From: Geosiphon pyriformis uo1
Lineage: Eukaryota; Fungi; Glomeromycota
Assembly: GCA_016748015.1 (NCBI GenBank)
Contig: JAAOMT010000591.1
Location: forward strand, 667,050-731,049
DNA: 64,000 nucleotides
Direction: 5' to 3'
Both the position numbers and the translations under genes were made by a program. The notes beneath the pieces are model-generated. The model was given only the letters and a program-made list of their open reading frames with translations, made no database searches and was not told the DNA's origin. Numbering within the stretch: the first letter of the stretch is position 1; each line of letters starts with the position of its first letter. Positions 1 to 30,047 of the stretch are shown piece after piece.

Positions 1-187
1 GAAAACTGAACAAAGTGCCAAACAGTCTCGATGGAATGACTTCTTAGCAGACTACAGATATATTGTACACCACAAACCAGGAAAACTACATACCAATGTT
101 GATAGCCTCTCAAGAATGAGACAAGATTAATACCAACAACAATTCCACCACAACTTACCAACTTACTAACAAAATAACCAAACAAGA

Positions 188-1574
188 ATAGATCTCAGAA
201 ACTACAGCAATCTTAAAAATTATTTGGAGATTCTTACCATGTCAGAAAACTGGTCTCCAAGTGAAAAACACCACTTACAACACCAATTAAAACAATATTT
301 CATACACCAAAACAAAATCTATTATAAAAATCACAGAAAACCAAACCAGCCACTCAGATTAGTACAAGAGAATAAAAAAGAAACAATTTTATACAACATG
401 CACACAGATTCATCTTCAGCACACTTGGGAAAAGAGGGAACAATTCAAAAAACCCTTGAACATTATTTTTGGTCTTACATGCAAAAAGATATTCAATAAT
501 ATGTAGAATCTTGTGATAATTGTCAAAGAAAAGGAGGAACTCACCTCACAGAACCTCTAAATCCAATCAAAGTTGGACAATCTTTTGACAGAGTTGGAAT
601 TGATTTAGTCGGACCATTATTTATCACAACCCAAGGAAATTGTTATATTGCTGTTGCAGTGGATTATCTTACCAAATGGCCTAAAGCTAGAGCCATCCAA
701 AGAGCAGATGCAAAATCAGTAGCAAATTTCATCTATGAAGACATTATCTGTAGACATGGATGCCCAATTGAACTCTTATCTGATCAAGAAACACATTTTG
801 TAAACAACTTGATACAAAAAATTTGTGAACAATTCAATGTCAAAAGACCTCTATTATCACCTTACCATCTCCAAACAAATGGACTTGTAGAATGTTTCAA
901 CAGAACATTGTGTGAATCTCTAGCCAAAGTCTCAACAGACTTTGAGCAGGAATGGGATATCTTTATTCCATCAGTGTTACTAGCATACAGAACACTAAAA
1001 CAAGATACTATGAAACACACACCATTTGATCTTACTTATGAAAGGACAGCAACATTACCAATTAATTTCACAGTGGAAACATACCCAGTGCAACCAATCA
1101 ATAAAGAAAACTTTCAAGAGACACTCCAAAGAAGAGCCTACACTCTTCTTAGTACACTGAAAGGAAAAAGAAAAATAGCAGCAACTTATATTGAACATTC
1201 CCAAGCTCAACAAAAAGAAAGACATGACAACAAATTACCACCTATTATCAACGAATTTAAAGTTGGAAATAAAAGTTCTCTTACACAGAACTAAGGCTAA
1301 AAAACAATGGAGTGGGAAATTTGAAAACAAATGGGATGGACTATTTTATATTCATGAAATTCTAGGCAATGGATCATATAAGTTAAGGCTTGATGACAAA
1401 ATATTAGCAAAAGTTGCACATGGAGACAGATTGAAACACTATTATTCCAGAAACAATCCTGAACCATTAATTCCACAAATTGGTACACATTTCTCTTTAA
1501 TTAATCCTAAAGATATTCTCCGAAATTTAGAACCAATAATTATAATAGAACAACAACCAAACTTGAACACTTAA
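188..1574 (+). pseudogene. Stand-alone integrase ORF of element A (HHCC, DDE core, GPF module; no chromodomain)
   Basis: ORF fragments 224-499, 659-1294 and 1191-1574. Motifs H..SSAHLG...WS, CDNCQ, GIDLVGP, DYLTKW, SDQETHF, YHLQTNGLVE, KWDGLF. Start is ATA GAT, which is ATG GAT in copy D. Confidence 0.9.
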
Positions 1575-1717
1575 AGCTTACAATAATTTTCTAATAAAAA
1601 CACAAAGACAAAAATAGTAAATAATTACAAAACACCCAAACCCAAAAACAAATAAAAATCCCATATCCAAAAAATAATTTTCTTTATTCTCTTTTTTCAT
1701 AATTAGTCAATTTTATC

Positions 1718-2425
1718 ATGATTATTTCTCGAAATATTCAACAAATATCCCAAAAATTAATGTTAGTCTTGAAAACACTTCCTGACTTATCCATAACAAT
1801 TAATGGAAGTCAAATTAATTACATTCAGAAAGAAACCACAGCCCCAGTAGCAAATTATTTACAGAATTATCACCTCTATAGAAGAAAAACAAGAAGTCGC
1901 TCTGAGAATAGATTACCAAGATTTTTGAAGCAAGCACTAGAAGAAAATTTTTTAATTGCTCCTATTGACATTTCACCAAATGCTACAATACAACAAAAAC
2001 TTCTACTACTTCTTAATGAACAGAACAATGAACACATCCCTATCTATAAATACTTTCAAATTAGAAAAACACTTTATGAACGAAAACTGAAACTTGAAGT
2101 AACAAATCTCACTCCTGAAGTTATACACAAACAAATCCACAATGAATTCAAAACAGCAGCTGGACCAACAAACACTCACTACAAACTTAGAGCCACTCTT
2201 AGACTCTATGATTTGTTCAATACTTGTGAAAATGTTCTACAAAATCCAATACTGCAACCAATAAAAGTCCAATACATTGGCAAACTCACAGAACTGAAAT
2301 TTCAACAATTTTCAGACCAGATTACTTCAATTATTTTAGATTACTATCTCAATATTACAGATAGTGCTTGGACTTCGATGGAGCTCAGTTTTGAAGAGGA
2401 GATTATGTTACCAGTAGAATTTTAG
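1718..2425 (+). CDS. ORF3 of element A: 235-aa protein of unknown function in the env position, ending inside the 3' LTR
   Basis: Uninterrupted ORF. Homologous copy in D (45284-45991). No signal peptide or TM stretch visible. Confidence 0.75.
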   Translation: MIISRNIQQISQKLMLVLKTLPDLSITINGSQINYIQKETTAPVANYLQNYHLYRRKTRSRSENRLPRFLKQALEENFLIAPIDISPNATIQQKLLLLLNEQNNEHIPIYKYFQIRKTLYERKLKLEVTNLTPEVIHKQIHNEFKTAAGPTNTHYKLRATLRLYDLFNTCENVLQNPILQPIKVQYIGKLTELKFQQFSDQITSIILDYYLNITDSAWTSMELSFEEEIMLPVEF

Positions 2426-3377
2426 CTATTAATTAGCATGAAAATTACCCTTATAATTCATATAATTTATTAGTATATTAATATCATTTCAAATTATCAT
2501 TTATTATTTAATCAATTATCACATATCACGATTCAATTAAAATAATCTAATTAGTATAACAGAAAGTAGGATGATCAAATTACACAATACCCTGAACTTT
2601 ATAACATTCAAAAATTCGCCGAAATTTACAGAAATTCGCCGAAATTATGAATAGTTCACCCAAATTAATGAATAGTTCAGCGAAATAACTTGTAGTTCAT
2701 CAAAATGTATCTTTAGTTTGCCGAAATTTGAGCAAAAAGAAAAAGTGCAAGTTCATAGACTAGTACTACAACAAGTGTATAAAAGAAGAGCTTTTCTCTT
2801 CTGGAAAATGTATCTTACTTTAAATTTATCTCTTAAAACCGTTCCTATATACACAAAAAGAAATAAATATCAAATAATTTGAAAAAACCAAATTCTTTAA
2901 TTATTGTACTTGGAAAATCCCCAAAACCCAACTAACATTTCGAAATTGATTAGCTACCAATTTCAGTAAACTGTTAGTGACCCCAGGTCTGGATAGAAAA
3001 CGTTTCTCTTAACAAAATTCTATTTTTTTTACATTTCTTTTATTTTCTTTTTCTTTTCTTATTACAATCATTAGGGTAGTCTACAGACGAGATTCCTGTA
3101 GAAGAGTTGACTTTCACAGCAAAGTAACTATACATTTTAATGAGCTTCCAGATGAGCAATTCCTGGGAAAAAGTTGATGTTTACTACAATGTAACTACAT
3201 AAAGTAACTGGCAAAGAATTGGCCATTCCACTTATAAGCCCAGCAAGTTCAAATTATAAGAGATAATTTGAAGATAAATTCAGTTACTGGAGGTCCAACT
3301 ACTTCCTGGAAACATGAATTCACAGCAAACAGGTATCAACAACATTTAAAAAAAGAGACCAAAAGCCTCTGGTAACA
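2406..3377 (+). repeat. Fam1 3' LTR (element A)
   Basis: TGTTACC...GGTAACA termini. Matches the reverse complement of 53236-54249. Confidence 0.93.
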
Positions 3378-6300
3378 GCACCTATGAATTTACAGTCATG
3401 CTTTTTGGTCTTATCAATATTTTTCCCATCTTTCAATGCCTAATGGACAAAATGTTTGAATTAGTAAAAAAAAACTTTGTTTTGGTCTATTTAGATGACA
3501 TAATAGTATACTCAAAAACTTGGAATAAATATTAGAACATTTACAAAAGATTTTTGATCTCCTTAGAAATGCTGGTCTCAAAATCAATCTAATCAAATCT
3601 TTTTTTGGACAACAATCTACTCAGTTCTTTGGTTATCTTATCACAAAAAATGGAATTTTTTCTAACTCAGCTAAATTTAAAAAAGTTCAGAACATTAGAC
3701 AACCAATAAATGTTTCTAAATTATACTCTTTTCTTGGTTTGACTTCTTACAATTGCAAATTTATTAAAGATTTCTCCAAATTTATCTTTCTTTTCAATCA
3801 GCTACTCAGAAAAAATGTTAATTATTATTAGGGCACTTATCAACAAAAAGCTTTTGAAACTCTGAAAAAAAAACTTGTTACTGAACCAATCCTTAAACAA
3901 TCTGATTTGGACCAATCTTTTATTCTGCACACTAATATATCTGGTTATGGACTTGGTGCTGTCCTCTTATAAAAAAATAAAAATAATAAAAAACATGCTA
4001 TAGCATATGCCAGTAGAACTTTCACACCAGCAAAAAAAAACTATTCAGTTACTGAACAAGAATGCTTAGTAGTAGTTTAAACTACTAGTTATTGGAATCA
4101 ATATTTTTTTAGTGTGAAATTCCTAATAGTAACAGATTATTAAGCCTTGGTTTGACTGTATGATAAAAAAAAGCTAGAACACAAATGAATAATTTGCTGA
4201 ATACTTCATTTAGATAAATTCGACTATGACATTTAACATCACAAAGAAGCAAATTATCAAAACACTGACACTTTCTCTAGATTTACTATACAGTAATAGT
4301 ACAATTTTTCAACCAAATCAACTTAATTATTAGTAACTCTCTTATAAACAAACATAATAATAAACTTAGACAACTACTCTGTATTAATAAAATTCTTGGG
4401 TAAAAAACAATATCCATTAGAATACACTTAACAGCAAAGAGAACATTTGCACAAACAATCAAATTTCTATTTGATTTGCCAGAACCAGTTATATAAAAAA
4501 AACAGAAAAGATCTTGACTGCTTTTAAAGAGTTATTAGATTTGAAAAAAAAGAAATTGTAATCTACTATATGTATACTGATCTATTAGCTTAACACTTTA
4601 AAAAAACATAAACAATACAAAAAATCTTAGCTTGCTATTATTGGCTTATCTTAAAAAAAGACATTGTTGAGTACATCAAAACCTGTAACATTTGTCAAAG
4701 AAAAGGCAAATCCAATCAAAAAAAAGATATTTATTCAATCTTTGTTGGTTAACTATTTGACAGAATTAGCATAGATGTTGTTAGATTTCTAATAATAACT
4801 TCTGATAATAATAGATATATTATTATAGCTACTGATTATCTTACAAAGTAAGTAGAAACAAGAGCCATTTTAGACAAAACAACAGTCTCAATAGCCAATT
4901 TCATTTATGAAAATATTATTTGTTGTCATGACTGTTCCAAAAAACTTTTATCTAACAAAAAAAAGCTTTTCTCAGTACACTGGTTAAAAAACTTTGTAGA
5001 AAAATGGAAATATTGTTACAATTGAAACTTATACTTCTTATTAATTATCACATGTATTAGCCACTGATGTTATATAAATTAGCCACTCTATTTTTAGTAA
5101 GTGATTATTGACCTGATCAATGACCTAACCATTAACCTGATCATTAATCTGATTATTGACCTGATCATTAATCTAGTCGTTGACCTGATCATTGACCACT
5201 TTGATAGCTATATAAGTGATAAATTTTTTAATTGTAGAAAAGTATAAAGAAATCAAAGAAATAAAGAAATAAAATAACAACTTCATCTCAATCCTTTTCT
5301 TATTGCTAATTTCTCTTTTCCTACTTTCAAGTATCTGAATATCTTAAAGATAAAAGATTACTTGTTGGTTATTCCTTACCCTTTTCCTAAAACATGTAAT
5401 TGCAATATTTGGAGATTATTAAATAAAACATGACTGAAGAGCACATCTGATACTTGATATTAAATTCTAAGAGCACTGACATGAGGCATAGAATTATACC
5501 AATTGTGATCATTTGTTGACAGTACGAACTATTCCTCTATCTTCAGATTTCCCGGTTATCTTTAAAAAGTATAGCAACTGAAATATTTTATGAGACTGAT
5601 CTTGCACATTGAATTTTTACTCATTCAATTCACTCTTTGAAGTTGAATTCACCTTTGATTATTTCTATCACCCTACAATTCTGTTCTTTCTTGCTATCCA
5701 TTGTTACTCATAAAAAAAAAAAAAAACAGATATAGAAAATAGCAGACCAATAAGAGAATAGTATTTAGCATGTGAACACATCACTCAGCAATGTAGAGCA
5801 ATGTCAGAAATCATGGCATATTGCTCAGCAATGTGGAGTGATGTTAGAAAATTAGAGCACATTGCTCAAGAAATTATAGCACATTACTTGGAAATGTGAG
5901 TGATCTTGTAGAACATCTATTATGTATATATAGTAATAGCATTAGAAATAGAAAAAAAACAGAATTCTTTAGTTAGAAATCTTCTATTCACAAATATTGA
6001 ATAAATAAATCATCTACTATTCAAATCTACTCTCCACTATCAACACTTTATGTTGATAATAATTGATACTTAACTATGCTGGAACAATAGCTCTTGATCA
6101 TGGCTATTGATGAGATACTAATTTGTGTATTACCTTGGCTTATTTCTTTATTTTCTTTTATTTTCTTTCTTTTTTTGATTTTTCTTGTTGAATACTAACT
6201 AATTAAGAATTAAAGCACTGAGTAATTGACATTACGGATAGTCTGGTAAAAGTCCTAGAAATAAGGGTAAAATTATATATATATTAACGAATAGCTTATC

Positions 6301-6559
6301 AAAAGAGCACAAATGCCAGAATAAATCTGGCCACCAAGCTGAGAAAGAAATTGAGAACAACTCATAAGGAAACTACGAATAACATCAACAAAGAATCTCT
6401 GTTCATTATACAAAGGATTCAACTCTAAAAACTTTCAGATACAACCAACATACCAGTATTACCAGCATTGCCAAGATATTGAGCACCAAGTTATGGATTT
6501 GTTATTTGATTTGAGATCCCAAATAATCATCTGTAATATTTGGTGCTCCCTGTGAAGTA

Positions 6560-9500
6560 TAATCCTACAGAGAACCAGCACCATTAACAATCATCCAAAA
6601 GTGGCAGAATCAGAAATCATAGGAACAAACCATTTAGGATTTGCCAAATCCTTATTTCAACAATACAGTTAACAAATAGGATTGAACAATAATCATTTCT
6701 CAGCTGAATCAGCCTTCAACTTTTATGTCAACAATAAAATTACAGACTGCTTAGGAGGAACAGTTAACATTGAATCTGCAAGAGAAAATTTCTATACAGA
6801 ATTATTTCAACATATTAGCTTACCAAGAAACTACAGTTTTGCACCAATTATTAGGGAAATCAATCAAACTATTAAAAAGTATACACAACAACAATTCCCC
6901 ATCACCTACGTAGATAAAAGCAAAGAAAGATTGCAAACTCCAGCAGTAACACCAAAACAAATCCAACCACTCAATTGGAAGAAAACCTGAGTTGAATCAC
7001 CCATCTATCTATTATACCATTATATGTCTGGAAGTGTCATCAACATCTCATCAACAGACATGTTCACATCAAACACAACATCAATCTTCGAATGCTTCCC
7101 ATTTCAAAGTAAACAATGGAAAGCAGAGTTATTAAGACCATATGGCAATTACTTTGAAGAATTTAAATTGTAATTGCTGACACCATCAGGATTCCAATTA
7201 TTACCACCTCAATCAGATTTCAGAAATACAAGTCCTTGGGAAATAACAGAATTAGAAAAAAAGGAAAAAAAAGAATCTAAAAATCAAGAATTTACTTACC
7301 AGAACCCAATTACAGAAAACTCAGAATTTAGAACCCCGAATCTTCAAACCCAGCAAAATTCAAATTTAGAAAACCCAGAAATCAAAACTCCAAATATTCA
7401 ACCACCATCAAATCAGAACAATCAGAATTCCAATCTAATTAATCAACCGGATCTATCTCCCATTATCGTTATTAACCCACCACCAGTTGAACCAATTGGC
7501 CAGCCACTACAACAATCACACCAGCAGATTCAACAGCTACTAGTACCACTTCAACAATTACCACAACACAACTTAGATCCAATGGTATACGCACTAATAG
7601 CCAAACTCGAAAAATTCACCAGCAAAGAGGACAATGCCCAAGTATGGCTAAATAATGTGGAGAAAGCCATTGCAGTTAATGGCTGGAATGATGCCAGAGC
7701 CATGCAAGCCATCCCATATTTTCTCCAGAATACTGCCAATTTATGGTATCAAAGTCTGATCAACAAATCCCAAGATTTTAATGCATTCAAAATAAAGTTC
7801 TTAAGATACTTTAGCAACAATAACAGCATTAACAAGCTAGCAAATATCTTCACTACCATCAAACAAGGAGAAAATGAAGCAGTCACTACTTACTTAGAAT
7901 GCTTCCACAGAAATCTGCACCAGATCCAAGCCATTGACCCCAATTATTTCACAGTAGCCCAGATCCTAAATCAGTTTATTTGCGGATTACACAGTAGCAT
8001 CCTACAACACGTATGTCCAATGCATCCCATCAATCTGCAAGCAGCCATCACAAATGCCAGAGATTTTGAAGCCACTGAACTCGAAGCTAACCATGTCCAA
8101 GCCGTTAATCTAGTAATGAATAAATTATCTAAATTGGATTCCAAATTGAAACAATTTAGTAATTCCATCAATCAGAAATTAGAAGGATACTTAGTTGACA
8201 ATCATGCAATTTATCAACCACCACAATGACATAATAATTCTGGAAACATGAATCATTTCCAGAATCAGTCATGTCTATCATTGTCGACCAATCAACAGTG
8301 GCAACAAAAAACATGTGTTTGTCACTATTGTGGTAAACAAAAATACCTACAAATTGATTGCTGCCATCACTTAAATAACCAACAATCAGGAAATCAATAT
8401 CAAAATCCCAATTGCTTGTTTCACATTCTGAATAACACACCGAATTCAGAGCCATACCATCAGAATTACTTATTTATGATACAGCAGCCACTTTATCAAC
8501 CACCAGTATATTAAATGCCAATTTATCAACTGATGACACCAGCAATTTATCAGCCACAACCACAACCCATTTATCAGCTGCAGCCCCAGGTAATGTATTA
8601 GCCCCAACAAATTCAAACACCGCCACAGAACTTACTGCAAAATGGAACCCAAAGGTCGAGATTGACCCAACAAAGCTGGAAATTGTTGATGGTAGTCCAT
8701 CAACCAATCCCCAGTTCCACGGCACAACCATTAGGCTCTCAACAATAGAATTTGGGCACCGAGTATGCCCAAAACCCAAATTCTCAGAACTATTTAAGTC
8801 TTCTTGTCACTCCAGAAGACACCCAATCCAATAACCCAGAAACTAACCAACACCCAACACTTATTAGCAACATTTTGCCAGCTACTATCACCAAGAACAA
8901 ATTACTAGATGCCATCTTTCTATTTGAACCCAAAAAACCATCAATCATGTCATTATTTAGTGGAGCTGCTCTGGAAGAAAATCCTATTACTGTCATGTAC
9001 ACTGATACAAAAGTTAATGGCCATACCATCAAACTAATCCTAAATAGTGGATCAGCTGGCAGTATTATCACATAACAACTCATGGACCAATTAGGTCACC
9101 GAGTTGATCACACTGCTAGCATGTGTATAATCACAGCTGACAGAGTGACTAAAACTCCAATTGGTGAAATCAACAACTTTTCTTTCGAAGTCAATGGCAT
9201 CAGTATTCTCATCAAAGTCTTAGTAATAGAAGCAACCCAATATCAAGCATTGGTAGACAACAATTGGTTATCCAAAACTAATGCCATACTCAATTAGACC
9301 ACTTAAGAATTACAACTCAGTCAAAACAGTTGACACACACATGTACCAGCCACATGTGGCCACTTTAAAACCACCAACTCAACAACTCCACTCATTGAAT
9401 TGGAAGAAAAAAAGGAGAAACCTATCTGGAAAGCTTATTAAGTGTTCTGGACCGACAAAGATCACAACAAACTACTGCCTATACTCTCCTGGGATGACAA

Positions 9501-12500
9501 TAGTAAAGGAAAACAGAAGGAGACTGAGCTTATTTGGAATACCAATTAAACCTGAGAAATTGACAATGACCAAGATGAACTAACTTGGAAGTGAACAAAC
9601 AATAATAGTAAGGAGAAAGAAAAAGAGAAGGAAAAGGAAACAACACCCATTAACAGTACTTATAGCCCATATGCTTACACTTTACTACTGTCATCTGGTT
9701 ATCACCAACCAAAACTGGTATGTGTCAATTGTGACAAGAAATTGTCATTAATGGGCGCATGTTGTGGTGATAACAAAAAATACTCTACTGTCACCAGATT
9801 TTACTGCCATCCATGCGTCATAAAGTGCTTTGGATGATTGAAATGACAAGGAAAGTGGGACAACCAACTATGTTTCACATGTGGAATGATTTTGCCTGAT
9901 GAAGGAATGTGGAATAACATTCTTGGGCAAGAAAAAATGTGCAATGAGACATGTCAGTATACCATCTTGATAAATGACTGGGTATGCAAGAGAACACCAA
10001 TCAATGACACATGAAAAAGAGCATTATGATAATTGGAAAGATATCTCCAGAATAAACATAAACTTTGGAGAATGGCATATGTGAAAGCAGAAGGTGCAAC
10101 AACCAGCGAATTACTGAAAATAAAAAACAATCTTCTATTTCTTTCTGAACCCAAATACATCCAAACTTTTAACATCTTTGGCAACATCAAAAATGACCTA
10201 GAAGAATTCCATAAACACTACTAGCAATTAATGCCCACAATAGAAGAACAGAAACAATGCTTGGAAGAAATCAACACTCAATTATGTGACCACTGTTTGA
10301 TTCCATGTGACTTCTAGTATTGTAATAAGTATAACCTCATTTACAATCTACCACCACGCATGATCTACACAATTACAGAAAAAGAAGAACCAATCAATCA
10401 CTGTGCATCAGAATCGAAATCAACTTTCAATTCTGATTCAAACTTCAACAACAATGACAACAAAAACAACGGTTCCAGCTCTGCTCCAAATAACAACAAA
10501 AATTATGGCAATTCAAATTCTGATTCAAACCCCAAAACCTTTATTGCACTTCCTAATCTCTCCAAGGAACAGGAACTCAAATGGTATAGTGATAATAATG
10601 AAGGTATCATGCCAGAATGCACACATAATACTAATGCAGGATTTGATCTGAGATATCCAGGAAAAGAAGCTATCAAATTGGAACCAAATTTGCACACATA
10701 TATTGATCTCAAAATAGCTCTGGAAATTCCAGCAACAAATATGGTCCAATTAGCATCTAGAAGTAGTTTAGCAAAAAAAAGAATCAACATTAGAGGAGAA
10801 ATAATTGATATGGGATATGTAGAAAATATTATCACCATGCTACAAAATGACTCAGAAAAGACCTATATTATAGAACCAAATGAAAAGATAGCACAGGCAA
10901 TATTCTTATCTCTAGTGAAGATAGTTCAATTAGTTTTAGTGGGAAAGAAGAAAGAATTAGATATAACAGCAAGAGGGATACAGGGATTTAAATCAATGGG
11001 TAGAATAGATATACCAATTAATATGGCAGAAAAAAAAATTGTTGACAAAGGAGAAATTATCTCAACCCATCAAACAATTTCCATTCTATCATATGACCAA
11101 TATGGGTTAACCATAAAAAGAAAAGTAAAAAATCAAGCTCAGTTGTTTGAAGCAGAAGTCACCATTTGCGAATCAGGGGAGATTGGATTCACTAATCTCT
11201 ACATATTAGTCAAAAGCCCCAAAAATATCAAAATTCCCATCTACAATACAACCAGAAGTGTCATCGAAATACCAAAGGGAACCATCATTGGATATTTAAC
11301 CACCAAAGTAAAGGATCAACCACCAAACCACATTCCAGATTTTCTACAGCTTTGCAGATATGTGGATATTACATCACAAACCATTTATGGAAAAAGTAAA
11401 TGTTATCTGTTTCAACCAGAACAATTAGAACAAATGAACATGGGGAATCTAGATTCACTTCAACAGATGCAATTCAAGATGTTACTTAACAATTTCAATG
11501 ACATTTTGCCAGTAAAAATGAATTTGGCTGAACCAACATCATCCAGTATTAGATCAAGACTGGAGATACAATGCCAATTAAACAAAGAGCATACAGAGTA
11601 CCACCAGCTAGCCATGAGATCATTTGTCAAGAAATTAACCAAATGCTTGACAATGGGCTAATTCAGCCATCAATGAGTCCATGGTCATCACCAGTGGTAC
11701 TGGTTCATAAAAAAAATGGAAAAATCCGTTTTTGTGTAAACCACCAAAAACTGAATGAAGTAACAAAAGGTAATAGCTATCCAACTTCAAAAATCCAAGA
11801 ACTATTCAATGCTTTTGGAGGAAATAAATAGTTCTCAACACTAGATTTAAATAGTGGTTACTGACAAGTAGCTATGAATCCAGCTGACAAAGAAAAAACA
11901 GTGTTCATCATAAGAAAGAGAAATTTTGAGTTTGAAGTCATGCCATTTGGCTTGATGAACGCTCCAGCAATATTCTAATGGCTTATGAAAATTGTTTATA
12001 TTAGATTACTATGAAAATCAGTAGTTGTATACTTGGATAACACCAATGTGTTCTCAAAAACATTTTATGATCATTTGCATTATCTCCAACAAGTGTTTGA
12101 AAGATTGAAAAGAGCAGAATTGAAACTAAATACAACCAAATGTTTCTTTAAAAAAATTAAACTCAAGTTTTTGGGACATGTAGTGAGCAAAGATGGAATC
12201 AAAATGGATCCAGACAAGATTGAAGTAGTTAAAAACTTCTGGTACCAACCAACTTGACAGAATTAAGAGCATTTTTAGGTTTTGCAGACTATTATTGCCA
12301 TTTTATTAAAGACTTTTCAAAACTGGCTCAGCCACTTCACTATCTACAGACCAAGAATGTGAAGTATGAATGGACCAAAGCTCAACAAGAAGCATTTGAC
12401 ACATTAAGAAGAAAGTTTATCCAAGCTCTAGTATTGATGTATCCAGATCACAGCAAACTATTCATAATCACCACTGATGCATCAGATCAAACATTAGGAG

Positions 12501-12832
12501 CAGTACTATCACAGAAAAAATCAGATGGAAGAGAACATTCAGTAGCTAACACTAGTAGAAGCTTAAGTTCAGCTGAGAAGAACTATGGAACTCCAGCACT
12601 AAAACACTTAGCTATCTATTGGGCTGTCATCAAATAGAAGAAATACTTGAGTCAAAAGTTTGAAGTGTATACTGATCACAAAAAATTGACTTCAATCCAA
12701 AAACAAAAATTTGCAGACAATTACCATGCCAGATAGAAAATAGAACTTTCACCATTTAATTATACAGTACATTATAAAAAGGGAAAAGACAATGGAAATG
12801 CTGATGAATTATCATGAATAAGACAAATCTAA
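6560..12832 (+). pseudogene. gag-pol of element E (retrotransposon gag, Zn knuckle, aspartic protease, Cys-rich domain, dUTPase, RT, RNase H); start approximate
   Basis: Motifs WLNNVEKAI..NGW, CHYCGKQ, LILNSGSAG (DSG), AGFDL/RSS/IAQ/RGIQGF, SPWSSPVVLV, YLDN, TDASD. The gag and PR fragments at 7174, 8248, 8752 and 9082 share one frame. Confidence 0.88.
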
Positions 12833-12863
12833 AAACATTTCAACCCAAAAAATATAATAAAAG

Positions 12864-14241
12864 ATAGACACACAAAAATACAAACAACTCCAGCATTATA
12901 TAAATACTCAATTGTTCAAGAAAAAATTATCTCAAAAAGAACAAAACAACATAAAACAACAATCAAAATATTTTATTAATCATTAAAATATACTCTACCA
13001 GAAGAACAGAAGAAATCCAGATCAACCAATCAGAGTAGTCACAGAATCAGAAAAAGAGACAATATTATTCAACATGCACTCAAATCCAACAGCAGGACAT
13101 TTTCATAAAGAAGCGACCATAAAAAGAACCAGAAAAAGATATTATTGGCCATCAATGTATCCAGACATCATCCAATATGTTCAAAATTGTGATGCTTGTT
13201 AAAAAAAAAGAGGAACAAGACCAAGTGAACCATTAAAACCAATCAAAGTAGAACAACCATTTGATTACATTGGAATTGACTTAGTCAGACCATTAACAAT
13301 CACCAGTAAAGACAACAGATATATTGCAGTAGCCATGGATTATCTCACTAAATGGCCAAAAGCAAAAGCCATTCAAAGAGCAGATGCAGAATCTGTTGCT
13401 GAATTTGTCTATCAAGAGTTAATATGTTAACATGGATGTCCAAAAAAACTACTATTAGATCAAAAAACTCATTTTGTGAATAGAACATTAATAGAATTAA
13501 GTCAGAGATTTGGGATAAAAAGATTATTATCGTCATCATATTATTTACAAACAAATGAACTAGTCAAAAGATTTAACAGAACACTGTGTGAAACAATTGC
13601 CAAAATCAGTCAAAAAAACCAAGATGAATGGAATTTGTTTATACCATCAGTATTATTTGCTTATCAGACAATAAGACAAGATACTACACAAACAACACCA
13701 TTTGAATTGGTATATGATAGGACAGCAACATTATCAGTTGAGAGAAAGGTCAGCATATATCCAATGGAACCAATAACAGAAGCTAATTTCCAAGAAACAT
13801 TGTTAAGAAGAACATATAACTTAATGGAAACACTAGAAAACAAATGACAAAAAAGCAGCTGATAACATTTAAAAGTCTTGAGAAAAGTAAAAAAAACGGC
13901 ACAATAACCAATTACCAGATAAACCAGTTGAATTCAAGATTGGAGACAAAGTACTTCTACATTGTACCAAAGTGGAAAAACAATGGAGTAGAAAATTTGA
14001 TCCCAAATGGGACGGACCATTTCACATAGAAGAAATTCTTGGAAATGGAGCTTATAAACTAATATAAGACAACAAAATCTTAGCCAAAGCAGCACATGAT
14101 GATTAACTGAAACCATATTACCAAATAGCATTATCATCTACCAATAACATTCCACAATTAGGAGTACAACGAATACTAGTTCAACCAAATGAGATTCTAT
14201 AAGATCTGGAACCAATCATAATTATTGGGCCAAACACATAA
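12864..14241 (+). pseudogene. Stand-alone integrase ORF of element E
   Basis: Starts ATA GAC ACA (degenerate MDT) 31 nt after the pol stop. Motifs AGHF, YYWP, GIDLV, DYLTKW, KWDGPF. Ends EPIIIIGPNT*. Confidence 0.85.
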
Positions 14242-14299
14242 AATCAAACAATAAAAGAGTATATAAAGACAGTATATGTGACAAATTCAACCAAAAAAA

Positions 14300-14960
14300 A
14301 TGGAAATACCAAATCATATTCATGCCATAGCTCAACAATTATTCCAGGCCTTAAGTCAACAACCATTAGATATGGAAATTATTGTTAACAACCAAACAAT
14401 TTGCTATCAAAACACCAAAAGAAAAACAAAAAATACATCATATTAGTGGTTACAAAAAAATGATAAAAACTGGTTAGACAATATAATAGAAAAAATAAGA
14501 AACACTTTTGGGAAAATACCTATTATGGCACTAACAGAAGAACTTACAAAAAAGAATTGGAAGCAATAGACAGAACAACTTCCAATATCATACTGTTATT
14601 ATCAGTTAAGTCGAAAGTTAAATATTCAGAAGTTGTATATTAACAAATCCAAGAGAGTATTTAACCAAAACATAATACAGCAAATTGAAGAATTTATTGG
14701 GAAAAAGACGAACTTGACACTATACATGAGAATAATTTATTGACTGCACAACATATTTCAGAACTATCCAGAAATACTGTTATACTCTAACATGGAAACC
14801 ATAACCATTAACCAATGGAGAAGAATAAACAATACACAAGTAGAAGACGTGAAAAACAAAGTCGAACAAACAATACTTGAAAAAAAAGTATTAGAATTAA
14901 TTCAAAACAAAGATTTCAACAGAGCTCAATATTAAAAAGAGGAGATAATATTACTCATAA
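14300..14960 (+). pseudogene. ORF3 of element E (MEIPNHIHAIAQQLFQAL...), degenerate; end approximate
   Basis: Read by eye from ATG 14300 with a few in-frame stops. Same position and N-terminal pattern as Fam1 ORF3. Confidence 0.65.
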
Positions 14961-15926
14961 AAAAAAAAGAAAACAGATATAAAAAATAGCAGACCAATAA
15001 GAGAATAGTATTTAGCACATAAGCATATTGCTCAGCAATGTGGAGCAATATCAAAAATCATGACACATTGCTTAGCAATGTGAAGCAATATCAGAAAACA
15101 CAGCATATTGCTCAGCAATGTGGAGCGATATTAGAAAATTAGAGCACATCACTCAGCAATATGAGCATTGCTCAAAAAATCATAGCATATTGTTCAGAAA
15201 TGTGAGTGATTTCATAGAACATCAATTATGTATATATAGTGATAGCATTAGAAATAGAAAAAAAACAAAATTCTTTAGTTAGAAATCTTCTATTCACAAA
15301 TATTGAATAAATAAATCATATACTATCCAAATCCACTCTCCACTATCAACACTTTATGTTGATAGTAATTGATACTTAACTATGCTAGAACAATAGCTCT
15401 TGATCATGGCTATTGACGAAATACTAACTTGTGCATTGCCTTGGCTCATTTCTTTATTTTTTTTTATTTTCTTTCTTTCTTTGATTTTTCTTGTTGAATA
15501 CTAACTTGATTAAGAATTAAAGTGCTGAGTAATTGACGTCATGGATAGCCTAGTAAAAAACCCAGAAATAAGGATAAAATTATATATATATTAACAGATA
15601 GCTTACCAGAAAAACATGAATGCCAGAATAAATCCAGCCACCAAGCTGAGAAAGAAATTGGGAACAACTCATAAGGAAACTATAAATAACATTAACAAAG
15701 AATCTCTGTCCATTATACAAAGAACTCAACTCTAAAAACCTTCAGATACAACCAACATATCAGTATCACCAGCATTGCCAAGATATTGAGTGCCAAGTTA
15801 CAGATTTGTTATTTGATTTGAGACCCCAAATAATCATCTGTAACACTATTAGCTTGTTACTCCAACCCATAACATAAAAGTAGTGCTTTTTGTGAGGTTG
15901 TTAAAATCCACTTTGTTTTTTATTGT

Positions 15927-17474
15927 ATGGGTAATTATTCATATCTGCCACAACAATCAGAAGAACACTTTAAAGCACACAACAAAAATGATCTAGACTT
16001 TATTGAACTCAATCCTTTGCCTTTCTGCTTGATTTGCTTCCCCATTAAAGAACAATCCAGCAGACAATTCCAAGACTTTTGGAACTGATTCCTGAATGAG
16101 CATTCAGCTGAAATCTACACAGCTTATACAATCTATTACTTTAACCAAGCTTATTTTAAAAATGACTTTGAAGGAAAAAACAACAGTATCAATCAGCTTT
16201 TATATTCTGCAATCTTTGAACAACAGCCCTTTGATTTTGAATATCTGAATCATCAAATCCACATTTGGATTGCTGCCTATCAATCAACAAAAACTTCTCT
16301 TGAAACAGAAGAAGAAAGCTATCAAACTACTTCTGTTTTTGATCTCTTTTCAAGTGAATCAGAACACTCCACACAAACAGTTACACTTGAACCAATGGCT
16401 CAAGACCCTCTGCAACAAAACATTTTGATTGCTCTCCAAGGTATACAGACTGCTTTAGGGCGAAAAAACAACACCCCATTACCATTATTTAGAGATAATG
16501 CCCAAGATCCAATTGAATAGTTGGATAATTTTGAAAGAGCTGCTACAGCAAACCAATATGATAATGAATACAAGTTTCAAATCATTGGTGGCTACCTCCA
16601 AGGCTCTCTTGCTACTTGGTTCTCACAAGAAACCAATGCCAATGCTCAGCAAAAAATCATTAGATGGGCACCAGCAAATGCTGGAGAAAACAACACCTCT
16701 TTTATTACCCGATTTGAAACTAAATTTAAAACTCCCATCTTAATCTCAAAATGGCATATAGAATTAGAAAGGAGAACTCAAGGCCCTGGTGAGGTTGTGA
16801 CAGAATATGCCAAAGCAATAAGAAAACTCATTAAATGGGTAGACTCTGGAAGAAATTGGACAGAAAAACAGAAAATACATTCCTTTACAAAAAGACTGAG
16901 AACTGATCTATCATATGTTTTTTGGCTTCTCCTGGTCTTGAAAAATAATCTCACAATGGATATGGCCATTAAACTTGCTCAGAAAATAGAAGACAATTAA
17001 AGGATGCACCTAGGATTCACACTTCCAGTTTTTGCTCCTGTTATGGCTCCTGCTCCCCTAATGGCTGTTACCTCTTTTGCTGCCCAAACTCAAGACCCAA
17101 ATGAACAGTTAATAGATAGACTTACAGCTAATTTTGCCTGATTATTAGAACTATTGGTCCAAGCAGTTAGAGAGAATCAACAACCCCAAAGACTCAGATT
17201 TGAATCTCATTTCAATCAGTTCCAACAACCACCATATTAAAGACAGCAAAATTGTGGCCCACCTGTATGCTATCATTGTAAACTAACTAGACATTTTTCA
17301 AGAGACTGCAACAATTCTTTATTGCCCCCTTCATCTCTTAGAAACAATAACAATCAAAACAACAGAACTATTAACAATAATATTTCCAACCAAAAAACCA
17401 ATTATGTTAATATCAATTTCTTTAGAGGAAATCTCCTAGTTGAAGCTACTGTTTATCAGTCTTTAAACTGGTAG
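15927..17474 (+). pseudogene. gag of element C
   Basis: LDNFERAATANQY, QGPGEVVTEYAK, CYHC knuckle. Ends LNW*. Confidence 0.85.
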
Positions 17475-20155
17475 ACACACCTCCAAAGGATGAAAGTGCA
17501 AGCTAACCAGAAAAAAACCCCTTTTATGCTTTTAACCTAACTGATAATAATCATGATATGGATGAACTAGCAATCAACACCTCTAAATCAACCAAAAAGA
17601 AGAAAAAAGCCAAGATTGATTTTGTCTTAAACTCAAACAAAGCATCCAAATTATCTGCTAATAACAATGAGTCACCAAAGGTTAAGGTTTTTAAAAATCC
17701 TCCAAAGTTAGAACCCCCAGAAATTGTACAAAAATTTGGATCCTATTCCATTGTTAAAGATCTCATGGAAACTCCAGCACACATTATATTTGGCCAGTTA
17801 ATGACTCACCCACAGTTTAAAAAAGATCTTTGCAAATCATTAATACCAAAGAAAAAGACACCAAAGACAAACAAACACCTTTACCAAGCTGAACTTGCTG
17901 ATGACAGCAATGTCATCCCTCTGATTTGTAAAGCCCAAGTGGCTGGTTACTTTATTGATCTGATCCTAAACAGTGGATCATTTGTTAGCATAATTGCCAA
18001 ACATTTTCTTGAAGCAATTGGCAGAAAAATTGATGAGCCTTCTATAAGACCAATAACTAATGTACATGGTAACAAGAAGAAAGGCCTGGGCATAGCCAAA
18101 GCTATTCCTGTTCGCATCAATGGTATCAGCATTGAAACAGATATGGAAGTATCTGAAGCAAAAGAGTACACCATTATTGTTGGTAATGAATGGCTTCAGA
18201 AAGCCAAAGCACTACTTAACTATAAACTTTGTGAGCTAACCATCAGATGTGGTAAGAAACCCATTGTGGTTAAATGCCGATATTGGACAACTCCTCCAGT
18301 ACCCAAGCAGAACCAAAAAGTAGAACAATCAGATGAATCAGATAATAATAAGAGCGATGATAAAAAAGATCAAGAAGAACCAGAAGAAACTGCTAAACTC
18401 GCTTATACCATTTTTACCAGCAATGACAAGCCACTAGACAATGTTAAAGCTAACAAAAAAGGAATCATGATAAATGGCAAGCTGATTTGTTGGCCCTACT
18501 ATGATATCCTCAGAAGAATCTTTGACAGAAAACCTGGCAAGAAAGCAAAATATAGTTATTGGTAATATGGTCTTTGTGCACAGTGCTAGTATAATAAATC
18601 TTTGTATTCACCAAGTGATGAATGCAAATCCTGTCTAATCTATTACAAAGATTGGGAACCAATTAGCTTGATACCTCGAGAAGAACTTAAAGAAGTACAA
18701 AAGTCCTTTGAGAATAAACCACTTGAAATCCAATTACTAGTTGTAGAACAAAAAGAACCTTCCCCTGAAGAAAAAAAAGTGGACATTGAAAATCTGTTGG
18801 CTAGGAATAGCCCAGTTATCTCAAAAGAAGATAATGCCCCTGGATGAACTCATGTGATACAATACACCATCACCACCAAAAAAACTCACCCCATTTATTT
18901 GAAGCCTTATCAATTCAATTGACACAATGATGAGTTTATCAAGAAAGAGATAAACCAGATGAAAGATCTTGGATTCATACAAGAAACCAAGAGTAAATAG
19001 GCTTTTTCAGTTGTAGTGGTATTCAAGAAAAGTGGAACCTTATGCTTCTGTATTGACTACTGCCAATTAAATACCATCACTATAAGAAACATGTACCCAC
19101 TCCCCAAAATTGATGCAATGCTAGATAAATTCAATGGTACTGCTTTCTTCTCAACTATTGATTTAACTGCTGAATTTTGACAAGTAGAGATGGATCCAGA
19201 AAGCAGAAAGAAAACTGTCTTTATCACCAAGTATAGCACCTATGAATTTACAGTCATGCCTTTTGGTCTTACCAATACTCCTCCTACCTTTTAATGTCTA
19301 ATAAATAAAGTGTTTGAATCAGTAAAAGAAAACTTTGTTCTGGTTTACTTGGATGACATAATGATATATTCAAAAATCTGGGATGAACATCTTGAACATT
19401 TACAGAAGGTTTTTGACCTGCTCAAAAATGCTGGCCTTAAGATCAACCCAATCAAATCTTTTTTTGCATGCCAATCTACCCAATTTCTTGGTCATTTTAT
19501 TACAAAAGATGGAATTTTTCCTGATCTAGCTAAAGTTGAAAAAGTTCAAAACATTAGACAACCAATGAATGTTCCTGAACTATGCTCTTTTCTTGGTTTG
19601 GCCTCTTACTATCGCAAATTTATTAAGAATTTCTCCAAAATTGCTTTTCCTTTCAATTAGCTACTCAAAAAAAATGTCAATTATCACTGGGACACTTATC
19701 AACAAAAAGCTTTTGAATTTTTGAAGGAAAAACTTGTTACTGAACCAATTCTCAAACAACCTGATCTGGACCAACCTTTTATCTTTCACACTGATGCATT
19801 TGGCTATAGACTTGGTGTTGTCCTTTTACAAAAAGATGAAAATAGCAGAAAACATGTCATAGTATATGCCAGTAGATCCTTCACACCAGCAGAAAAGAAC
19901 TATTCAGTTACTAAACAGGAATGTTTAGCAGTAGTTTGGACAACTAGTTACAGGAATCAATATCTTTTTGGTGTAAAATTCCTAGTAGTAACAGATTATT
20001 AAGCCTTGGTTTGGCTGCACAATAAAAAAAAGCTGGAACACAAACAAATAATTTGTTGGATACTCCACTTGGATGAATTTGACTATGATATTCAACACCA
20101 CAAAGGAGCAAATCATCAAAACACCAACACTCTATTTAGACTTACCATCCAGTGA
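17462..20155 (+). pseudogene. pol (PR-RT-RNase H) of element C, -1 frame relative to gag
   Basis: LILNSGS, VYLDD, FHTDA. TGA at 20153-20155 after ...RLTIQ. Confidence 0.87.
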
Positions 20156-20219
20156 CAGTACAACCTTTCAAACCAAACCAACTTAATTATTAGTAACTTT
20201 TTTATAAACAAACATGATA

Positions 20220-21533
20220 ATAGACTTGGACAACTACTTTGCCTTAATAGAATTTTTGGGTAAAGGACAATATCCACCTGAATACACTCAACAGCAAAGA
20301 AAACATTTGTGCAAACAATCAAATTTTTATTAGATTCACCAGAACCAATTATACAAAAAAAACAGAAAAAATCCTAACCACCCCCAAAGAGTCATCAGAT
20401 TTGAAAAAAGAGAAATTGTAATATACAACATGTACACTAACCTATTAGCTAGCCACTTTGGAAAAACAAAGACAATTTAGAAAACTTTAGCTCACTATTA
20501 TTGGCCTACCTTGGGAAAAGACATTGCTGAATACATCAAAATCTGTGACATCTGCCAAAGAAAAGGCAAACCCAATTGCAAAAAAAATATTCATCCAATC
20601 TCTGTTGGTCAACCATTTGACAAAATTGGTATAGATGTTATTGGACTTTTAACAATTACTCCTGATGGCAACAGATATATTATCACAGCTACCAACTATC
20701 TTATAAAGTGGGTAGAAGCAAGAGCCACCCCAGACCAAATAGCAGTTTCAATAGCCAATTTCATTTATGAAAATATCATCTGCCATCATGGCTGCCCCAA
20801 AAAACTTTTATCTGATAGAGAAAGAGCTTTTTTCAGTACACTGGTTAAAAAACTTTGTAGAAAAATGAGAATATGTTATAAACTTTTCTTCCCTTATCAC
20901 TCCCAAACAAATGGCCTAGTGGAATGTTTTAATAGAACATTATGTGAAACCCTAGCCAAAACCAATGAAGAAACAAACTTATGAGACAAAGTACTGCTTT
21001 TAGCTTTGTTTGCTTATAGAACTGTGAATTATAACATAACAAGTTATGAATCTTTTTATCTGCTCTATAGATGCATGACAATACTACTAATAGAAACTAA
21101 TATTAAAACAATACTCTTTGAAGAGATCACAATAGGGAATTACAAAGACATTTTGCAAAGAAGACTTGGTACTATTCTTGACTCCTTGGTAGAAGCACGA
21201 ATAATTGCTTTTGAAAAGATAAAACAGTTCCAAAAAAAGCTTAAGAAAAAAAAAACCTATAAAACACTTTCTTTAAGTGTTGTTTACTTGGTATTGGAAT
21301 ATTGTTCAGACAGAGACAATATCTATGATAATAAATTTTCTAGCTGATTAAAAGGACCCTTTATAGTCAACAAAGTTTTGAACAATAGTTTTTATATTCT
21401 TCAAAATCAATCTGAAACAATCTTCAATGATCATTTTGTTCATAGTACACAACTCAAGAAATACCATAAATGATCTGATTGGCTGCCTGTTGTGGTAATA
21501 CTGATTCAAATAATCAGCAAAAATCAAGTATAA
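20220..21533 (+). pseudogene. Stand-alone integrase ORF of element C
   Basis: ATA GAC TTG (degenerate MDL). CDICQ, GIDVIG, YHSQTNGLVE, KGPF. Confidence 0.85.
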
Positions 21534-21574
21534 ATAAATGCACCATTCCCAAAACAAAGATATCTTCAATTAAC

Positions 21575-22232
21575 ATGAACAATTATTTTCTGAATCAAAA
21601 CATTCAAAATGCCTTCTATACTCTTTATGAATATTGGATCAAAAACTATCCAAATGCTACTTTGACCATTGGAAAACAAACCACCATAACTGATAACAGT
21701 GGAACACATACTGTTATTAGACCAAAGAAAACCATTACCAGAAGAAAAAAAATTGGTAGTAAAATATATAAATATCTGTTGGAAAGTATAACAGCAGCTA
21801 TACTTCCACTTTCCAACACAATTGGAAAAACACTTCAAAAAATCTTATCCATAGACAAAAAACTTGTTATATGAAAGACAATTAGAACTCTATGGTCGTT
21901 TTGGTGAAATCATAGAGGATATGAAACTCATGAAGAAAACAACTTTAGAGATACAGGCAGAAATTTTGGGCATTATACAGTTAGATGTTTTAAAAGTTTT
22001 AACTATTGCTAGAAGAGCCAAAACTCTAATACAAAGATTTGGTTTTTTGGATACAAAACTTATTTCACTTCAAGTATTATATATCTTATTAACAAAAGAC
22101 TTCAACAAACTAGTTAGCTTTGAGTTAGATAAAATCTTTCCAATAGATTACACCATAAATAGCTTAATTTTGCCAGAGCTGAATCTCTTTAGAGAGGATG
22201 ATGTTATGGTTGAAACTTATACTTCTTATTAA
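21575..22232 (+). pseudogene. ORF3 of element C (one frameshift)
   Basis: ORFs 21479-21874 and 21864-22232 match ORF3 of element F. Confidence 0.75.
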
Positions 22233-25070
22233 TTATTACATGTATTAGCCACTGATGTCATATAAATTAGCCACTCTATTTTTAGTAAGTGATCATTGAC
22301 CACTTTTGATAATTATATAAGCAATGAATCTTTTAACTATAGAAAAGTATGAAAAAATTAAAGAAATAAAGAAATAAAATAACAACTTCATTTCAATCTT
22401 TCTCTTATTGCTAATTTTTTTTTCCCTACTTTCAAGTATCTGAACATCTTAAAGATAAAAGATTACTTGTTGGTTATTCTTTACTCTTTTCTTAAAACGT
22501 GTAATTGCAATATTTGGAGATCATTGAATAAAATGTGACTGAAGAGCATATCTGATACTTGATATTGAATTTTAAGAGCACTGACATAAGGCATAGAATT
22601 ATACCAAGTGTGATCATTTGTTGACAGTACAGACTATCCTTCTACCTTTAAATTCCCCAGTTATCTTTGAAAAGTATAGCAACTGAAATATTTTATAAGA
22701 CTGATTTTGCACATTGAATTCTTACTCATTTAATTTGTTCTTTGAAGTTGAATGTCCCTTTGATTATTTCCATCACCCTACAATTCTGTTCTTCCTTGTT
22801 ATCTATTAGCTTGTTATTCCAATCTGTAATAATATGTTATAAACTTTCTTCTTTTTACTATCCTTAAACAAATAGCTTAGTAGAATATTTCAATAGAATA
22901 CTATGTGAAATCTTAGCCAAAACCAGTAAAAAAACAAACTTATAGGACAAAATACTGTTTTCAGCTTTGTTTGCTTATAAACTGTAAATCATAACATAAC
23001 AAGTTATAAACTTTTTTATCTGCTCTATGAATACATGACAACATTACTAATAGAAACTAATATTAAATGAATACCCTTTGAAGAAATTACAATAGAAAAT
23101 TATAAAAACATTTTGCAAAGAAAACTTGGTACTATTTTTGACTCATTGGTAGAAGCACAAATAATTGTTTTAAAAAGATAAAACAGTTTTAAAAAAAGCT
23201 TAAGAAAAAAAAAACCTATAAAACATTTTTCTTAAGTGTTAGTAACTTAGTATTAGAATACCATTCAGACAAAGACAATGTCTATGATAATAAAATCTCT
23301 AGCTGATGGAAAAAACTCTTTTTAGTCAACAAAGTTTTGAACAATGGTTCTTATATTTTACAAGATCAATATAGAACAATCTTTAATAATTGTCTTGTTT
23401 ATGGTACATGATTCAAAAAATATTACAAATGACCTAATTGGTTATCTGTTGTAATAATACTGATCCAAATAATTAGCAAAAATCAGGTATAAATAAATGC
23501 ATCATTTCCAAAACAGAAGTATTTTTAATTAACATGAACAATTATTTTCTGAATCAAAACATTCAAAATGTTTTCTATACTCTTTATGAGTATTGAATCA
23601 AAAATTATCTAAATGCTACTCTGACTATTAGAAAACAAATCATTATAACTAATAACAATAAAATATATACTATTATTAGACCAAAGAAAACTACTATCAG
23701 AAAAGAAAAAATTGGTAGCAAAATGAATAAATATTTGCTGAAAAGTATAACAGTGGCAATACTTTTACCTTCCATTACAATTGAAAAAACAATTAAAAAA
23801 ATTTTATCTATAAACAAAACTTGTCATATGGAAGGCAATTAGAACTCTATGATTATCTTGGTAAAATTATAGAGAACATAAAGCTTATGAAGAAAACAAC
23901 TTTAAAGATATAGATAAAAATTTTGGGCATTATATAATTAAATGTCTTAAAAGTTTTAACTATTGCTAAAAGAGCCAAAACTCTTATACAAAAATTTAGT
24001 CTCTTGAATACAAAACTTATTTCATCTCAAATATTATATATCCTATTCACAAAAAACTTTAACAAACTAGTTAGTTTTAAGTTAAACAAAACCTTTCAAA
24101 TAGATTATCCTATAAATAGCTTGATTTCACCAGAGTTTAATTTCTTTGGAAAAAATAATGTTATAATTGAAACTTATACTTTTTATTAGTTATCACATGT
24201 ATTAGCCACTAATATCATATAATTAGCCATTTTATTTTTAGATAGTAATTATTGATTTGATCAATAATCTGACTATTGACTTGATTATTGACCTGATTAT
24301 TGACTATTTTCAATAGCTATATAAGTGATAAGTCTCTTAGCTATAGAAAAATATAATCAAAGTAATGAAATAAAATCCACTATTATTTTATTTTTTTTTA
24401 TATTATTTATTCTCTTTTTCTTATCTTTAAGTATCTAAATATCTTAAAATAAAAAATTACTTGTTGGCATTTACATACTTTATCTTTTTTTTTTCTTAAT
24501 TTGTATTGTTAGAATTAGTCTGAGAAGTAATTGCTTGCTCTTGTAATTTATTGAATAAAAAAATAATTAAAAAGCATAATAATACCTGTTATTAATTTTA
24601 AGAATTGCCAAGTTGAAGTATAAAATAATAGCAGTGATGTTATCTTGTTAACAATTATGGACTATTTCTCTATCTTTAAATTTCCAGAAAAAATTTACAA
24701 CTGTAATTTTTATAAGACTAATTATGCACATTGAATTTTTATTTATTTAATTCACTTTCTTATTGTAATTTTCTTTTTAATTATTTTCATTATTCTACAA
24801 TTCTGTTCTCTTTTGCTATCCATTAGCTTGTTACTTCAATCTGTAATAATATTATTTAAATAAATTAAAATAAGGTTTTTATTAACTAATTTAAATACTT
24901 TGTTTATTAATTATTAAAAGATAAAAAAAGCATTAATTAATCCAAAAAACATAATTGTAAATTTATAAGTATTATACTATTATAGTTGAAACCCATAGTT
25001 TTTATTAGTTATTACATGTATTAGCCACTGATGTCATATAATTAGCCACCCTATTTTTAGATAGTAATCA

Positions 25071-25190
25071 TTGACCTTATCAATGACCTGACCATTAACC
25101 TAATTATTGACCTGATCATTGACCTGATCAATGATCTGATTGTTGACCTGATCATTGACCTAATCATTGACTTGATTGTTGACCTAGTCA
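25071..25190 (+). repeat. Ten tandem 12-mers (consensus TTGACCTGATCA) in U3 of the Fam3 LTR, just upstream of a TATATAA box
   Basis: Counted directly. The same array, with different copy number, is present in most Fam3 LTRs. Confidence 0.9.
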
Positions 25191-25722: not shown

Positions 25723-25739
25723 TGGTGCTCCCTGTGAGG
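25723..25739 (+). promoter_or_regulatory. Primer-binding site TGGTGCTCCCTGTGAGG
   Basis: Begins with TGG (complement of tRNA CCA), 6 nt after the LTR end. Near-identical in Fam2 (6541). Confidence 0.85.
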
Positions 25740-25768
25740 TTGTCAAAATTCACTTATTTCCTCATTGT

Positions 25769-29981: not shown

Positions 29982-30047
29982 TAGTAAAACCCTTTCAAAC
30001 CAAACCAACTTAATTATTTGTAACTTACCCCACAAACAAACACAATA

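Follow-up and report, generated by a model that had tools for sequence, protein, structure and literature searches.

The integrase of Ty3/Gypsy long terminal repeat (LTR) retrotransposons is usually produced within the Pol polyprotein, and the plant Athila/Tat members of this group leave target-site duplications (TSDs) of 5 bp. A stand-alone integrase is found in Ginger1 DNA transposons, to which Bao, Kapitonov and Jurka (2010, PMC2836005) ascribe YPYY, H2C2, DDE and GPY/F motifs, TGTNR ends, a 4-bp TSD and animal hosts. They also group the Ginger1 integrase with Athila/Tat and name Cer1, Gypsy-1-I_RO, DGLT-A1 and Gypsy-6-I_HM as further YPYY-bearing Gypsy groups. Here we describe element E, which lies in a 64,000-nucleotide stretch of the genome of the fungus Geosiphon pyriformis (contig JAAOMT010000591.1, positions 667,050 to 731,049; the whole stretch is called the window below) and for which a link to Ginger1 had been proposed from the sequence alone. 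We consider it probable that E is a dead Ty3/Gypsy element whose lineage, large and likely fungal for the most part, has a separate integrase gene, and that this lineage is one of three YPYY branches, beside the animal Ginger1-type and plant Athila/Tat-like integrases.

Architecture of element E

Element E comprises the following features, given in window positions and all on the forward strand (RT, reverse transcriptase):

5698..5701, forward: left TSD copy, CCAT
5702..15845, forward: element E, a decayed Ty3/Gypsy LTR retrotransposon sitting in the 5′ LTR of Fam1 element A
5702..6538, forward: 5′ LTR with TGTTAC start, then a primer-binding-site-like TGGTGCTCCC
7174..8229, forward: gag (Retrotrans_gag, Ty3_capsid; Pfam, E-value 1.4e-9)
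8929..9390, forward: aspartyl protease region, broken (Pfam)
10603..10995, forward: dUTPase domain in the protease/RT interval (Pfam, E-value 9.8e-17)
11520..12832, forward: RT and RNase H, broken, with a stop at 12830-12832 (Pfam)
12833..12863, forward: A/C-rich spacer of 31 nt, after which the integrase is in a different frame
12864..14241, forward: separate integrase frame with YPYY-type N terminus, H2C2, DDE core and GPF/SH3 module
14300..14935, forward: extra small open reading frame (ORF) after the integrase, broken
14949..15845, forward: 3′ LTR with GTAACA end, preceded by a polypurine tract
15846..15849, forward: right TSD copy, CTAT

Pfam matches follow the order gag, aspartyl protease, dUTPase, RT, RNase H, integrase zinc finger, core and Tf2-type SH3 module. 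E thus has the gene order of Ty3/Gypsy elements (Metaviridae: gag, protease, RT, RNase H, integrase) together with their TG..CA LTR ends, primer-binding-site-like sequence, polypurine tract and 4-bp TSD, and departs from the usual Gypsy state in that its integrase lies in a separate frame and not within the Pol polyprotein. At 12864 the integrase start codon has decayed to ATA, and a frameshift interrupts the integrase frame. Alignment and Pfam bear out the YPYY-type N terminus and the GPF module that had been read from the sequence, and Pfam finds no chromodomain in E. The two LTRs are 90.6% identical, 76 of their 79 differences being transitions.

Comparison with Ginger1 shows how far the resemblance extends. 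The motif set YPYY, H2C2, DDE and GPY/F is present (alignment blocks and Pfam), a set that Athila/Tat also possesses according to PMC2836005. However, E has direct LTRs in place of terminal inverted repeats (TIRs) of 40-270 bp, carries gag, protease, RT and RNase H upstream of its integrase where Ginger1 has a single transposase gene, and shows no consistent CCGG/CCGT target; no OTU or Ulp1 domain was matched by Pfam in the four proteins P0001, P0002, P0010 and P0016. Athila/Tat elements resemble E as LTR retrotransposons with a YPYY-type integrase that falls in the same tree group, but their integrase is fused to Pol and lacks a methionine at the start column described below. The dUTPase-bearing fungal Ty3/Gypsy elements of Postia, Phanerochaete and Tuber (PMC2864245) share with E a dUTPase in the protease/RT interval, whereas a separate integrase gene is not described for them in the part of that source available, and E is without a chromodomain.

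The protease/dUTPase interval of E contains a cysteine-rich insert (9391-10317; about 300 aa) without Pfam match, and a similar region is present in element D.

The separate integrase is not a product of decay

Besides that of E, the window holds six integrase copies, in D and X and in the Fam1 elements A, F, W and G. Four of these elements are placed as follows:

42412..54249, reverse: element D, another split-integrase family with dUTPase; TSD CTGC/CCAC on its own strand
1..3377, forward: element X, 3′ part, D family; right flank GCAC, left end beyond the window
5014..22831, forward: Fam1 element A, the host of E; TSD ATAT/ATAT
24978..32683, forward: Fam1 element F, integrase from ATG 30048; TSD ATAC/ATAC, empty CCGT site at 25688

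The separate integrase frame claimed in the original prediction was found in all of them: in 7/7 window copies RNase H precedes the integrase and is closed by a stop, after which the integrase frame begins, with spacers of 31 nt in E and 45-66 nt in the other six and with all three frames represented. The D integrase (47521-46139) is nearly intact.

A free integrase could be an artefact of decay, its stops and frameshifts arising by C-to-T mutation, and two observations would fit this: all window copies are heavily mutated (CpG observed/expected 0.06-0.18 in the elements versus 0.88 in an island of host genes), and in D, X, F and W integrase and RNase H share one reading frame. Intact relatives refute this explanation, whose probability we regard as negligible, since they have a methionine in a common start column (117/121) and their spacers occur in every frame. 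The split integrase is real and not a decay product.

With the D integrase as query, 1053 relatives of 253-807 aa were retrieved, and nearly all of the best 120 of these measure 390-455 aa and share a start position. Because this protein search selects by length, metagenome DNA loci were checked. RT/RNase H lies upstream of the stand-alone integrase in 49/80 loci; just five of the remaining 31 have more than 600 nt upstream, and all five carry the long pol tail of the RT-bearing loci. The junction was examined in 66 loci with a called ATG, nine of which have too short a flank. In the other 57 the upstream frame ends before the ATG or overlaps it out of frame, a count that includes one locus whose upstream frame is not pol (L077) and one whose end was miscalled (L069). 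In 12 of the 57 loci the upstream frame has its stop level with the ATG or beyond it, and in the others the stop precedes the ATG by 1-20 nt (3 loci), 21-60 nt (5), 61-130 nt (27) or more than 130 nt (10), so that 15/57 junctions measure 20 nt or less, overlaps included; the three relative frames are represented by 13, 19 and 25 loci. A search for long proteins gave mostly other Gypsy Pol. It also gave a small number of fused proteins, among them P0127, P0132, P0139 and several fungal gene models, that fall within the split clade or next to it, and the split is therefore the rule in this lineage but not universal. Viral contigs gave three weak, unrelated matches. A literature search found no description of fungal Gypsy elements whose integrase is a gene of its own, nor of a Ginger1 link for such a gene, although Marin 2010, Repbase reports and supplements left unread may bear on this.

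Five split-clade integrases (P0291, P0294, P0445, P0470 and P0520) have C-terminal extensions of 110-160 aa and no RT.

Spacer structure and predicted translation

In 17/80 metagenome loci a covarying stem-loop lies 3-30 nt upstream of the integrase ATG (L045:9-62, L058:284-337, L050:1119-1172, L026:5182-5235, L019:3752-3805 and 12 more loci). It consists of an outer stem, a 12-nt purine-rich bulge with a GNRA motif, an inner 6-bp stem and a CANNGYGA loop; 97% of cells are paired, and compensatory changes occur in 6/10 pairs. Rfam returned no match in 15 scanned loci, 10 of which carry the stem-loop, and a search of the window for the motif was negative. The stem-loop is a candidate translation-control RNA.

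The distribution of junction lengths suggests stop-restart translation where stop and ATG overlap closely, and other routes where the spacer is longer. In the lineage of E, Gag, protease, dUTPase, RT and RNase H would be made from the first frame or frames; re-initiation or internal initiation would yield the integrase from the second. The integrase would likely be translated from its own start codon, on genomic or subgenomic RNA.

A second class of spacer, about 75-97 nt long, has GGAT..ACCC and TTGATTTAAC-like words directly before the ATG (L002-L009, L012, L016, L017). In one sub-lineage, mostly that with the stem-loop, Pol runs 220-315 aa beyond RNase H (L026, L051, L055, L080, L066).

Integrase and RT phylogeny

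For the trees, a Ginger1-type set was defined by architecture (integrase with OTU or Ulp1/PHD, no RT, animal names) and not by Repbase entries; its named members come from crinoid, clam, oyster, mussel, snail, fish, sponge, thrips and crab. The Athila/Tat-like label on plant rows (Marchantia, Adiantum, Tanacetum) was inferred from host and motifs. In a mixture-model integrase tree of 70 rows, 24 other Gypsy integrases are separated at 100/100 from a group that comprises the Ginger1-type rows (100/99), the split clade with both window integrases inside (95/86), bryophyte Tat-like rows (100/100) and a lone pair. A FastTree of 477 rows also recovers the YPYY group (96) and the Ginger1-type clade (98), and in a quick tree of the zinc finger and DDE core alone, without the YPYY and GPF regions, the group is kept at 96. 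The groups of the 70-row tree were likewise retained (99, 98 and 97) in a quick tree of a second sample of 63 rows that included fern, flowering-plant and sponge rows. The window integrases fall outside the Ginger1 clade in the 70-, 477- and 63-row trees, the two forming separate clades, and the plant Athila/Tat-like rows form their own clade (99-100) in both integrase and RT trees, with the window lineage outside it.

The split integrases, the Ginger1-type integrases and the plant Athila/Tat-like integrases form one strongly supported group, within which the sequence data are compatible with each of the three possible orders: under constrained LG+F+G4 models on 59 rows of the second sample (without the long or unplaced P0147, P0139, P0482 and P0505) these differ by at most 3.6 log-likelihood units, with P values of 0.47, 0.55 and 0.43 in the approximately unbiased (AU) test. 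Read in this way, the trees reproduce the picture given by Bao et al., in which Ginger1 stands near Athila/Tat and other YPYY elements with no supported sister, and add the split clade to it. The proposed Ginger1 link holds at the level of this group, from which other Gypsy integrases stand apart, but Athila/Tat-like fused integrases belong to it as well. The integrases do not fall in an ordinary Gypsy clade far from Ginger1, a placement that would have contradicted the link; neither is Ginger1 nested with the window integrases.

A possible alternative, which we entertain only tentatively, is that the split lineage and Ginger1 are sisters. Both would then descend from an LTR retrotransposon whose integrase gene had its own initiation, and Ginger1 would have arisen when this gene lost gag-pol and gained TIRs and an OTU/Ulp1 tail; this reading agrees with the three-branch group but goes beyond it. 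The AU test does not reject the union of split clade and Ginger1, which costs 1.7 log units in the 70-row sample (AU 0.47) and was the favoured order in a faster search on the second sample, the other orders again not being rejected. A Ginger1-type OTU protein (P0131) also ranks ninth of 120 long matches, above nearly all non-fungal fused Pol. The more careful tree, however, joins the split clade to the Tat-like rows and the lone pair (95/84), as do the 477-row tree (91) and the core-only tree (89) for split and Tat-like rows; fused P0127, P0132 and P0139 indicate that the split is labile, and the named hosts differ, being fungi on one side and animals on the other.

Direct descent of Ginger1 from window-like elements, with Ginger1 nested in the split clade, is highly improbable. 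The core-only quick tree does move one long-branched split-clade row, P0291, to two Ginger1-type rows (89), but the split clade is monophyletic without Ginger1 (95/86 and 97), and grouping Ginger1 with the two window integrases and their three nearest relatives lowers the log-likelihood by 62 and is rejected (AU 0.0018), a test that covered this one placement. The search for TIR-bounded integrase-only derivatives suggested by the original prediction was negative: no inverted repeat of at least 25 nt flanks the integrase in the 66 loci, many of them on short contigs, and none of the 25 longest of 72 inverted pairs in the window bounds such a unit, these long pairs being oppositely oriented LTR or pol copies.

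It is also very unlikely that a Gypsy element exchanged its own integrase for a captured Ginger1 transposase gene, ATG included. Such an event would explain a separate gene with the Ginger1 start register and the length of the YPYY stem in the integrase tree (0.48), far greater than that in the RT tree (0.065). Against it, no full-length tree nests the split clade in Ginger1, and the clade has no OTU/Ulp1 tail. In the RT tree (57 rows), other Gypsy RTs fall on one side (SH-aLRT 90, a Shimodaira–Hasegawa-like approximate likelihood ratio test) and the RTs of the same elements on the other side with the Tat-like RTs, a modest support; this tree is roughly congruent with that of the integrase, and therefore no integrase swap is indicated.

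A shared start methionine

Among rows with an aligned N-terminal motif, a methionine occupies the exact start column in 117/121 split-clade, 9/19 Ginger1-type, 0/13 Tat/Athila-like and 6/86 other rows, and lies within -3..+2 of it in 13/19 Ginger1-type rows. The shared Ginger1-type starts, from crinoid, fish, crab and unnamed sources, often read MD or ME followed by Y at +5. The region is absent from 50/69 Ginger1-type rows, and the starts compared are those of gene models, not transcripts. The shared column is the best new argument for a Ginger1 link, and for the sister relation in particular, but no proof: convergence could produce it, because any free integrase must begin just before the first helix.

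Target sites and termini

The flanks of E (CCAT at 5698-5701, CTAT at 15846-15849) and of D (GTGG/GCAG), the termini TGTTAC..GTAACA and the intact site CTATCCGTTAGC at 25684 in F are present as originally described. The TGT termini were nonetheless rejected as evidence of a Ginger1 link, TGTNR ends being common to Gypsy elements generally according to PMC2836005.

The claim that E duplicated an ancestral CCGT fared less well. Sites homologous to that of E in eight other Fam1 LTRs read CCGT (2), CCAT (2), CTAT (2), CTGT (1) and TCAT (1), and the sister LTR of host element A reads CTAT. CCGT is the original site of the Fam1 LTR family, but because all three element-A descendants have A at position 3, it is at least as likely that the target was already CCAT when E inserted. 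For D the proposed GCGG holds: its two TSD copies are CTGC and CCAC, the empty sites are CCAC (6/7) and CCAT (1/7), and since CTGC and CCAC can both be derived from CCGC by decay, a CCGC/GCGG target is well supported by these copies.

A general CCGN bias is not borne out. The right flank of X is GCAC, in agreement with 2/3 empty sites, and Fam1, whose integrase is also split, is flanked in F by ATAC/ATAC and in A by ATAT/ATAT, while three insertions with one readable end each show GTAT, ATAT and ATAT; 5/5 readable Fam1 flanks are thus ATAC, GTAT or ATAT. According to PMC2836005, Ginger1 targets are CCGG (75%) and CCGT/ACGG (24%), and the Ginger2 target is RTATAY. With C/G-rich targets in two families and an RTAY-leaning site in one, CCGN is therefore not a property of the lineage. 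Three insertions are too few for a target logo, and the majority letters of loose contig ends at the LTR ends are too weak for one: agreement is 0.47 among 53 contigs at the 3′ end of the E family and 0.47 among 37 contigs of the D family, the latter apparently mixed with the polypurine-tract junction. The 4-bp length holds for E, D, F and A, while the CCGG or CCGT/ACGG specificity of Ginger1 is not seen.

The 4-bp TSDs of both lineages, and the likeness of CCGC in D and CC(G/A)T in E to the CCGG/CCGT reported for Ginger1 in PMC2836005, would suit a sister relation; the ATAC-type sites of Fam1 would not. Overall, the TSD argument for a Ginger1 link is weak.

Other features of the window

The window (31.6% GC) consists nearly entirely of nested repeats, plus a 5-kb island of intron-bearing host genes that encodes a BCS1 N-terminal domain and, presumably, an SPC3-like gene. 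The closest named protein match is a Geosiphon pyriformis gene model (77% identity), and the other named matches come from Rhizophagus, so a Glomeromycotina host is likely. All window elements are dead. LTR pairs are 90-94% identical, and their differences are almost all transitions, in every C context. C-to-T/G-to-A hypermutation resembling repeat-induced point mutation affects all contexts and is limited to repeats across the whole window, the host island being spared.

Downstream of the integrase, window elements (14300-14935, 1703-2422, 31307-31804) and many loci, most of the long ones included, have an extra ORF of 130-240 aa. No convincing Pfam family was found for these ORFs, one of which (L003) has a helix-turn-helix match; a relative of that of E (14300..14935) was sought in the window and the metagenome loci, and none was found. 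Two inserts that have poly(A) tails and duplications of 7-10 bp lie inside LTR elements (42724-44614 and 61450-63840), among them D, whose 3′ LTR is split by a poly(A)-tailed insert; the two are likely non-LTR retroelements, with ORFs lacking a Pfam match. At 60628-61317 a single Fam1 LTR is common to two tandem elements, with a polypurine tract on one side and a primer-binding site on the other.

Origin of the lineage and its meaning

On the probable reading, E as a dead member of one of three YPYY branches, its lineage is likely closely related to Ginger1, as a cousin, and serves well as a structural model of a Ginger1 precursor. The original prediction had seen in such elements the expected intermediate between Gypsy and Ginger1; this is a live hypothesis, while E itself is neither a Ginger1 nor a demonstrated intermediate. 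Several points weigh against our reading: the shared start-methionine column and the common 4-bp TSD would favour a closer, sister relation; 412/Mdg1, Cer1, Ylt1, DGLT-A and Gypsy-1_RO rows are not labelled in the trees; every tree row was collected for its similarity to the two groups under comparison; and the Ginger1 set rests on architecture instead of Repbase entries.

E would have moved by ordinary retrotransposition, with reverse transcription in Gag particles, and its lineage would insert with 4-bp TSDs at family-specific targets, C/G-rich for E, D and X and ATAC-type for Fam1.

For annotation, 'Ginger' calls made from the rve domain alone, as in PMC5751038, can catch these retrotransposon integrases. 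For the origin of Ginger1, a large stand-alone-integrase lineage that shares the tree group and the start column of Ginger1 is, by its form, the best candidate for a precursor and opens the question to test. If the sister relation were true, Ginger1, and through it the GIN1/GIN2 and Imagin host genes, would have inherited the own start site of a retrotransposon integrase, and the split lineage of early-diverging fungi would supply the missing first step in the 'reverse evolution' of Bao et al. from retrotransposon to DNA transposon.

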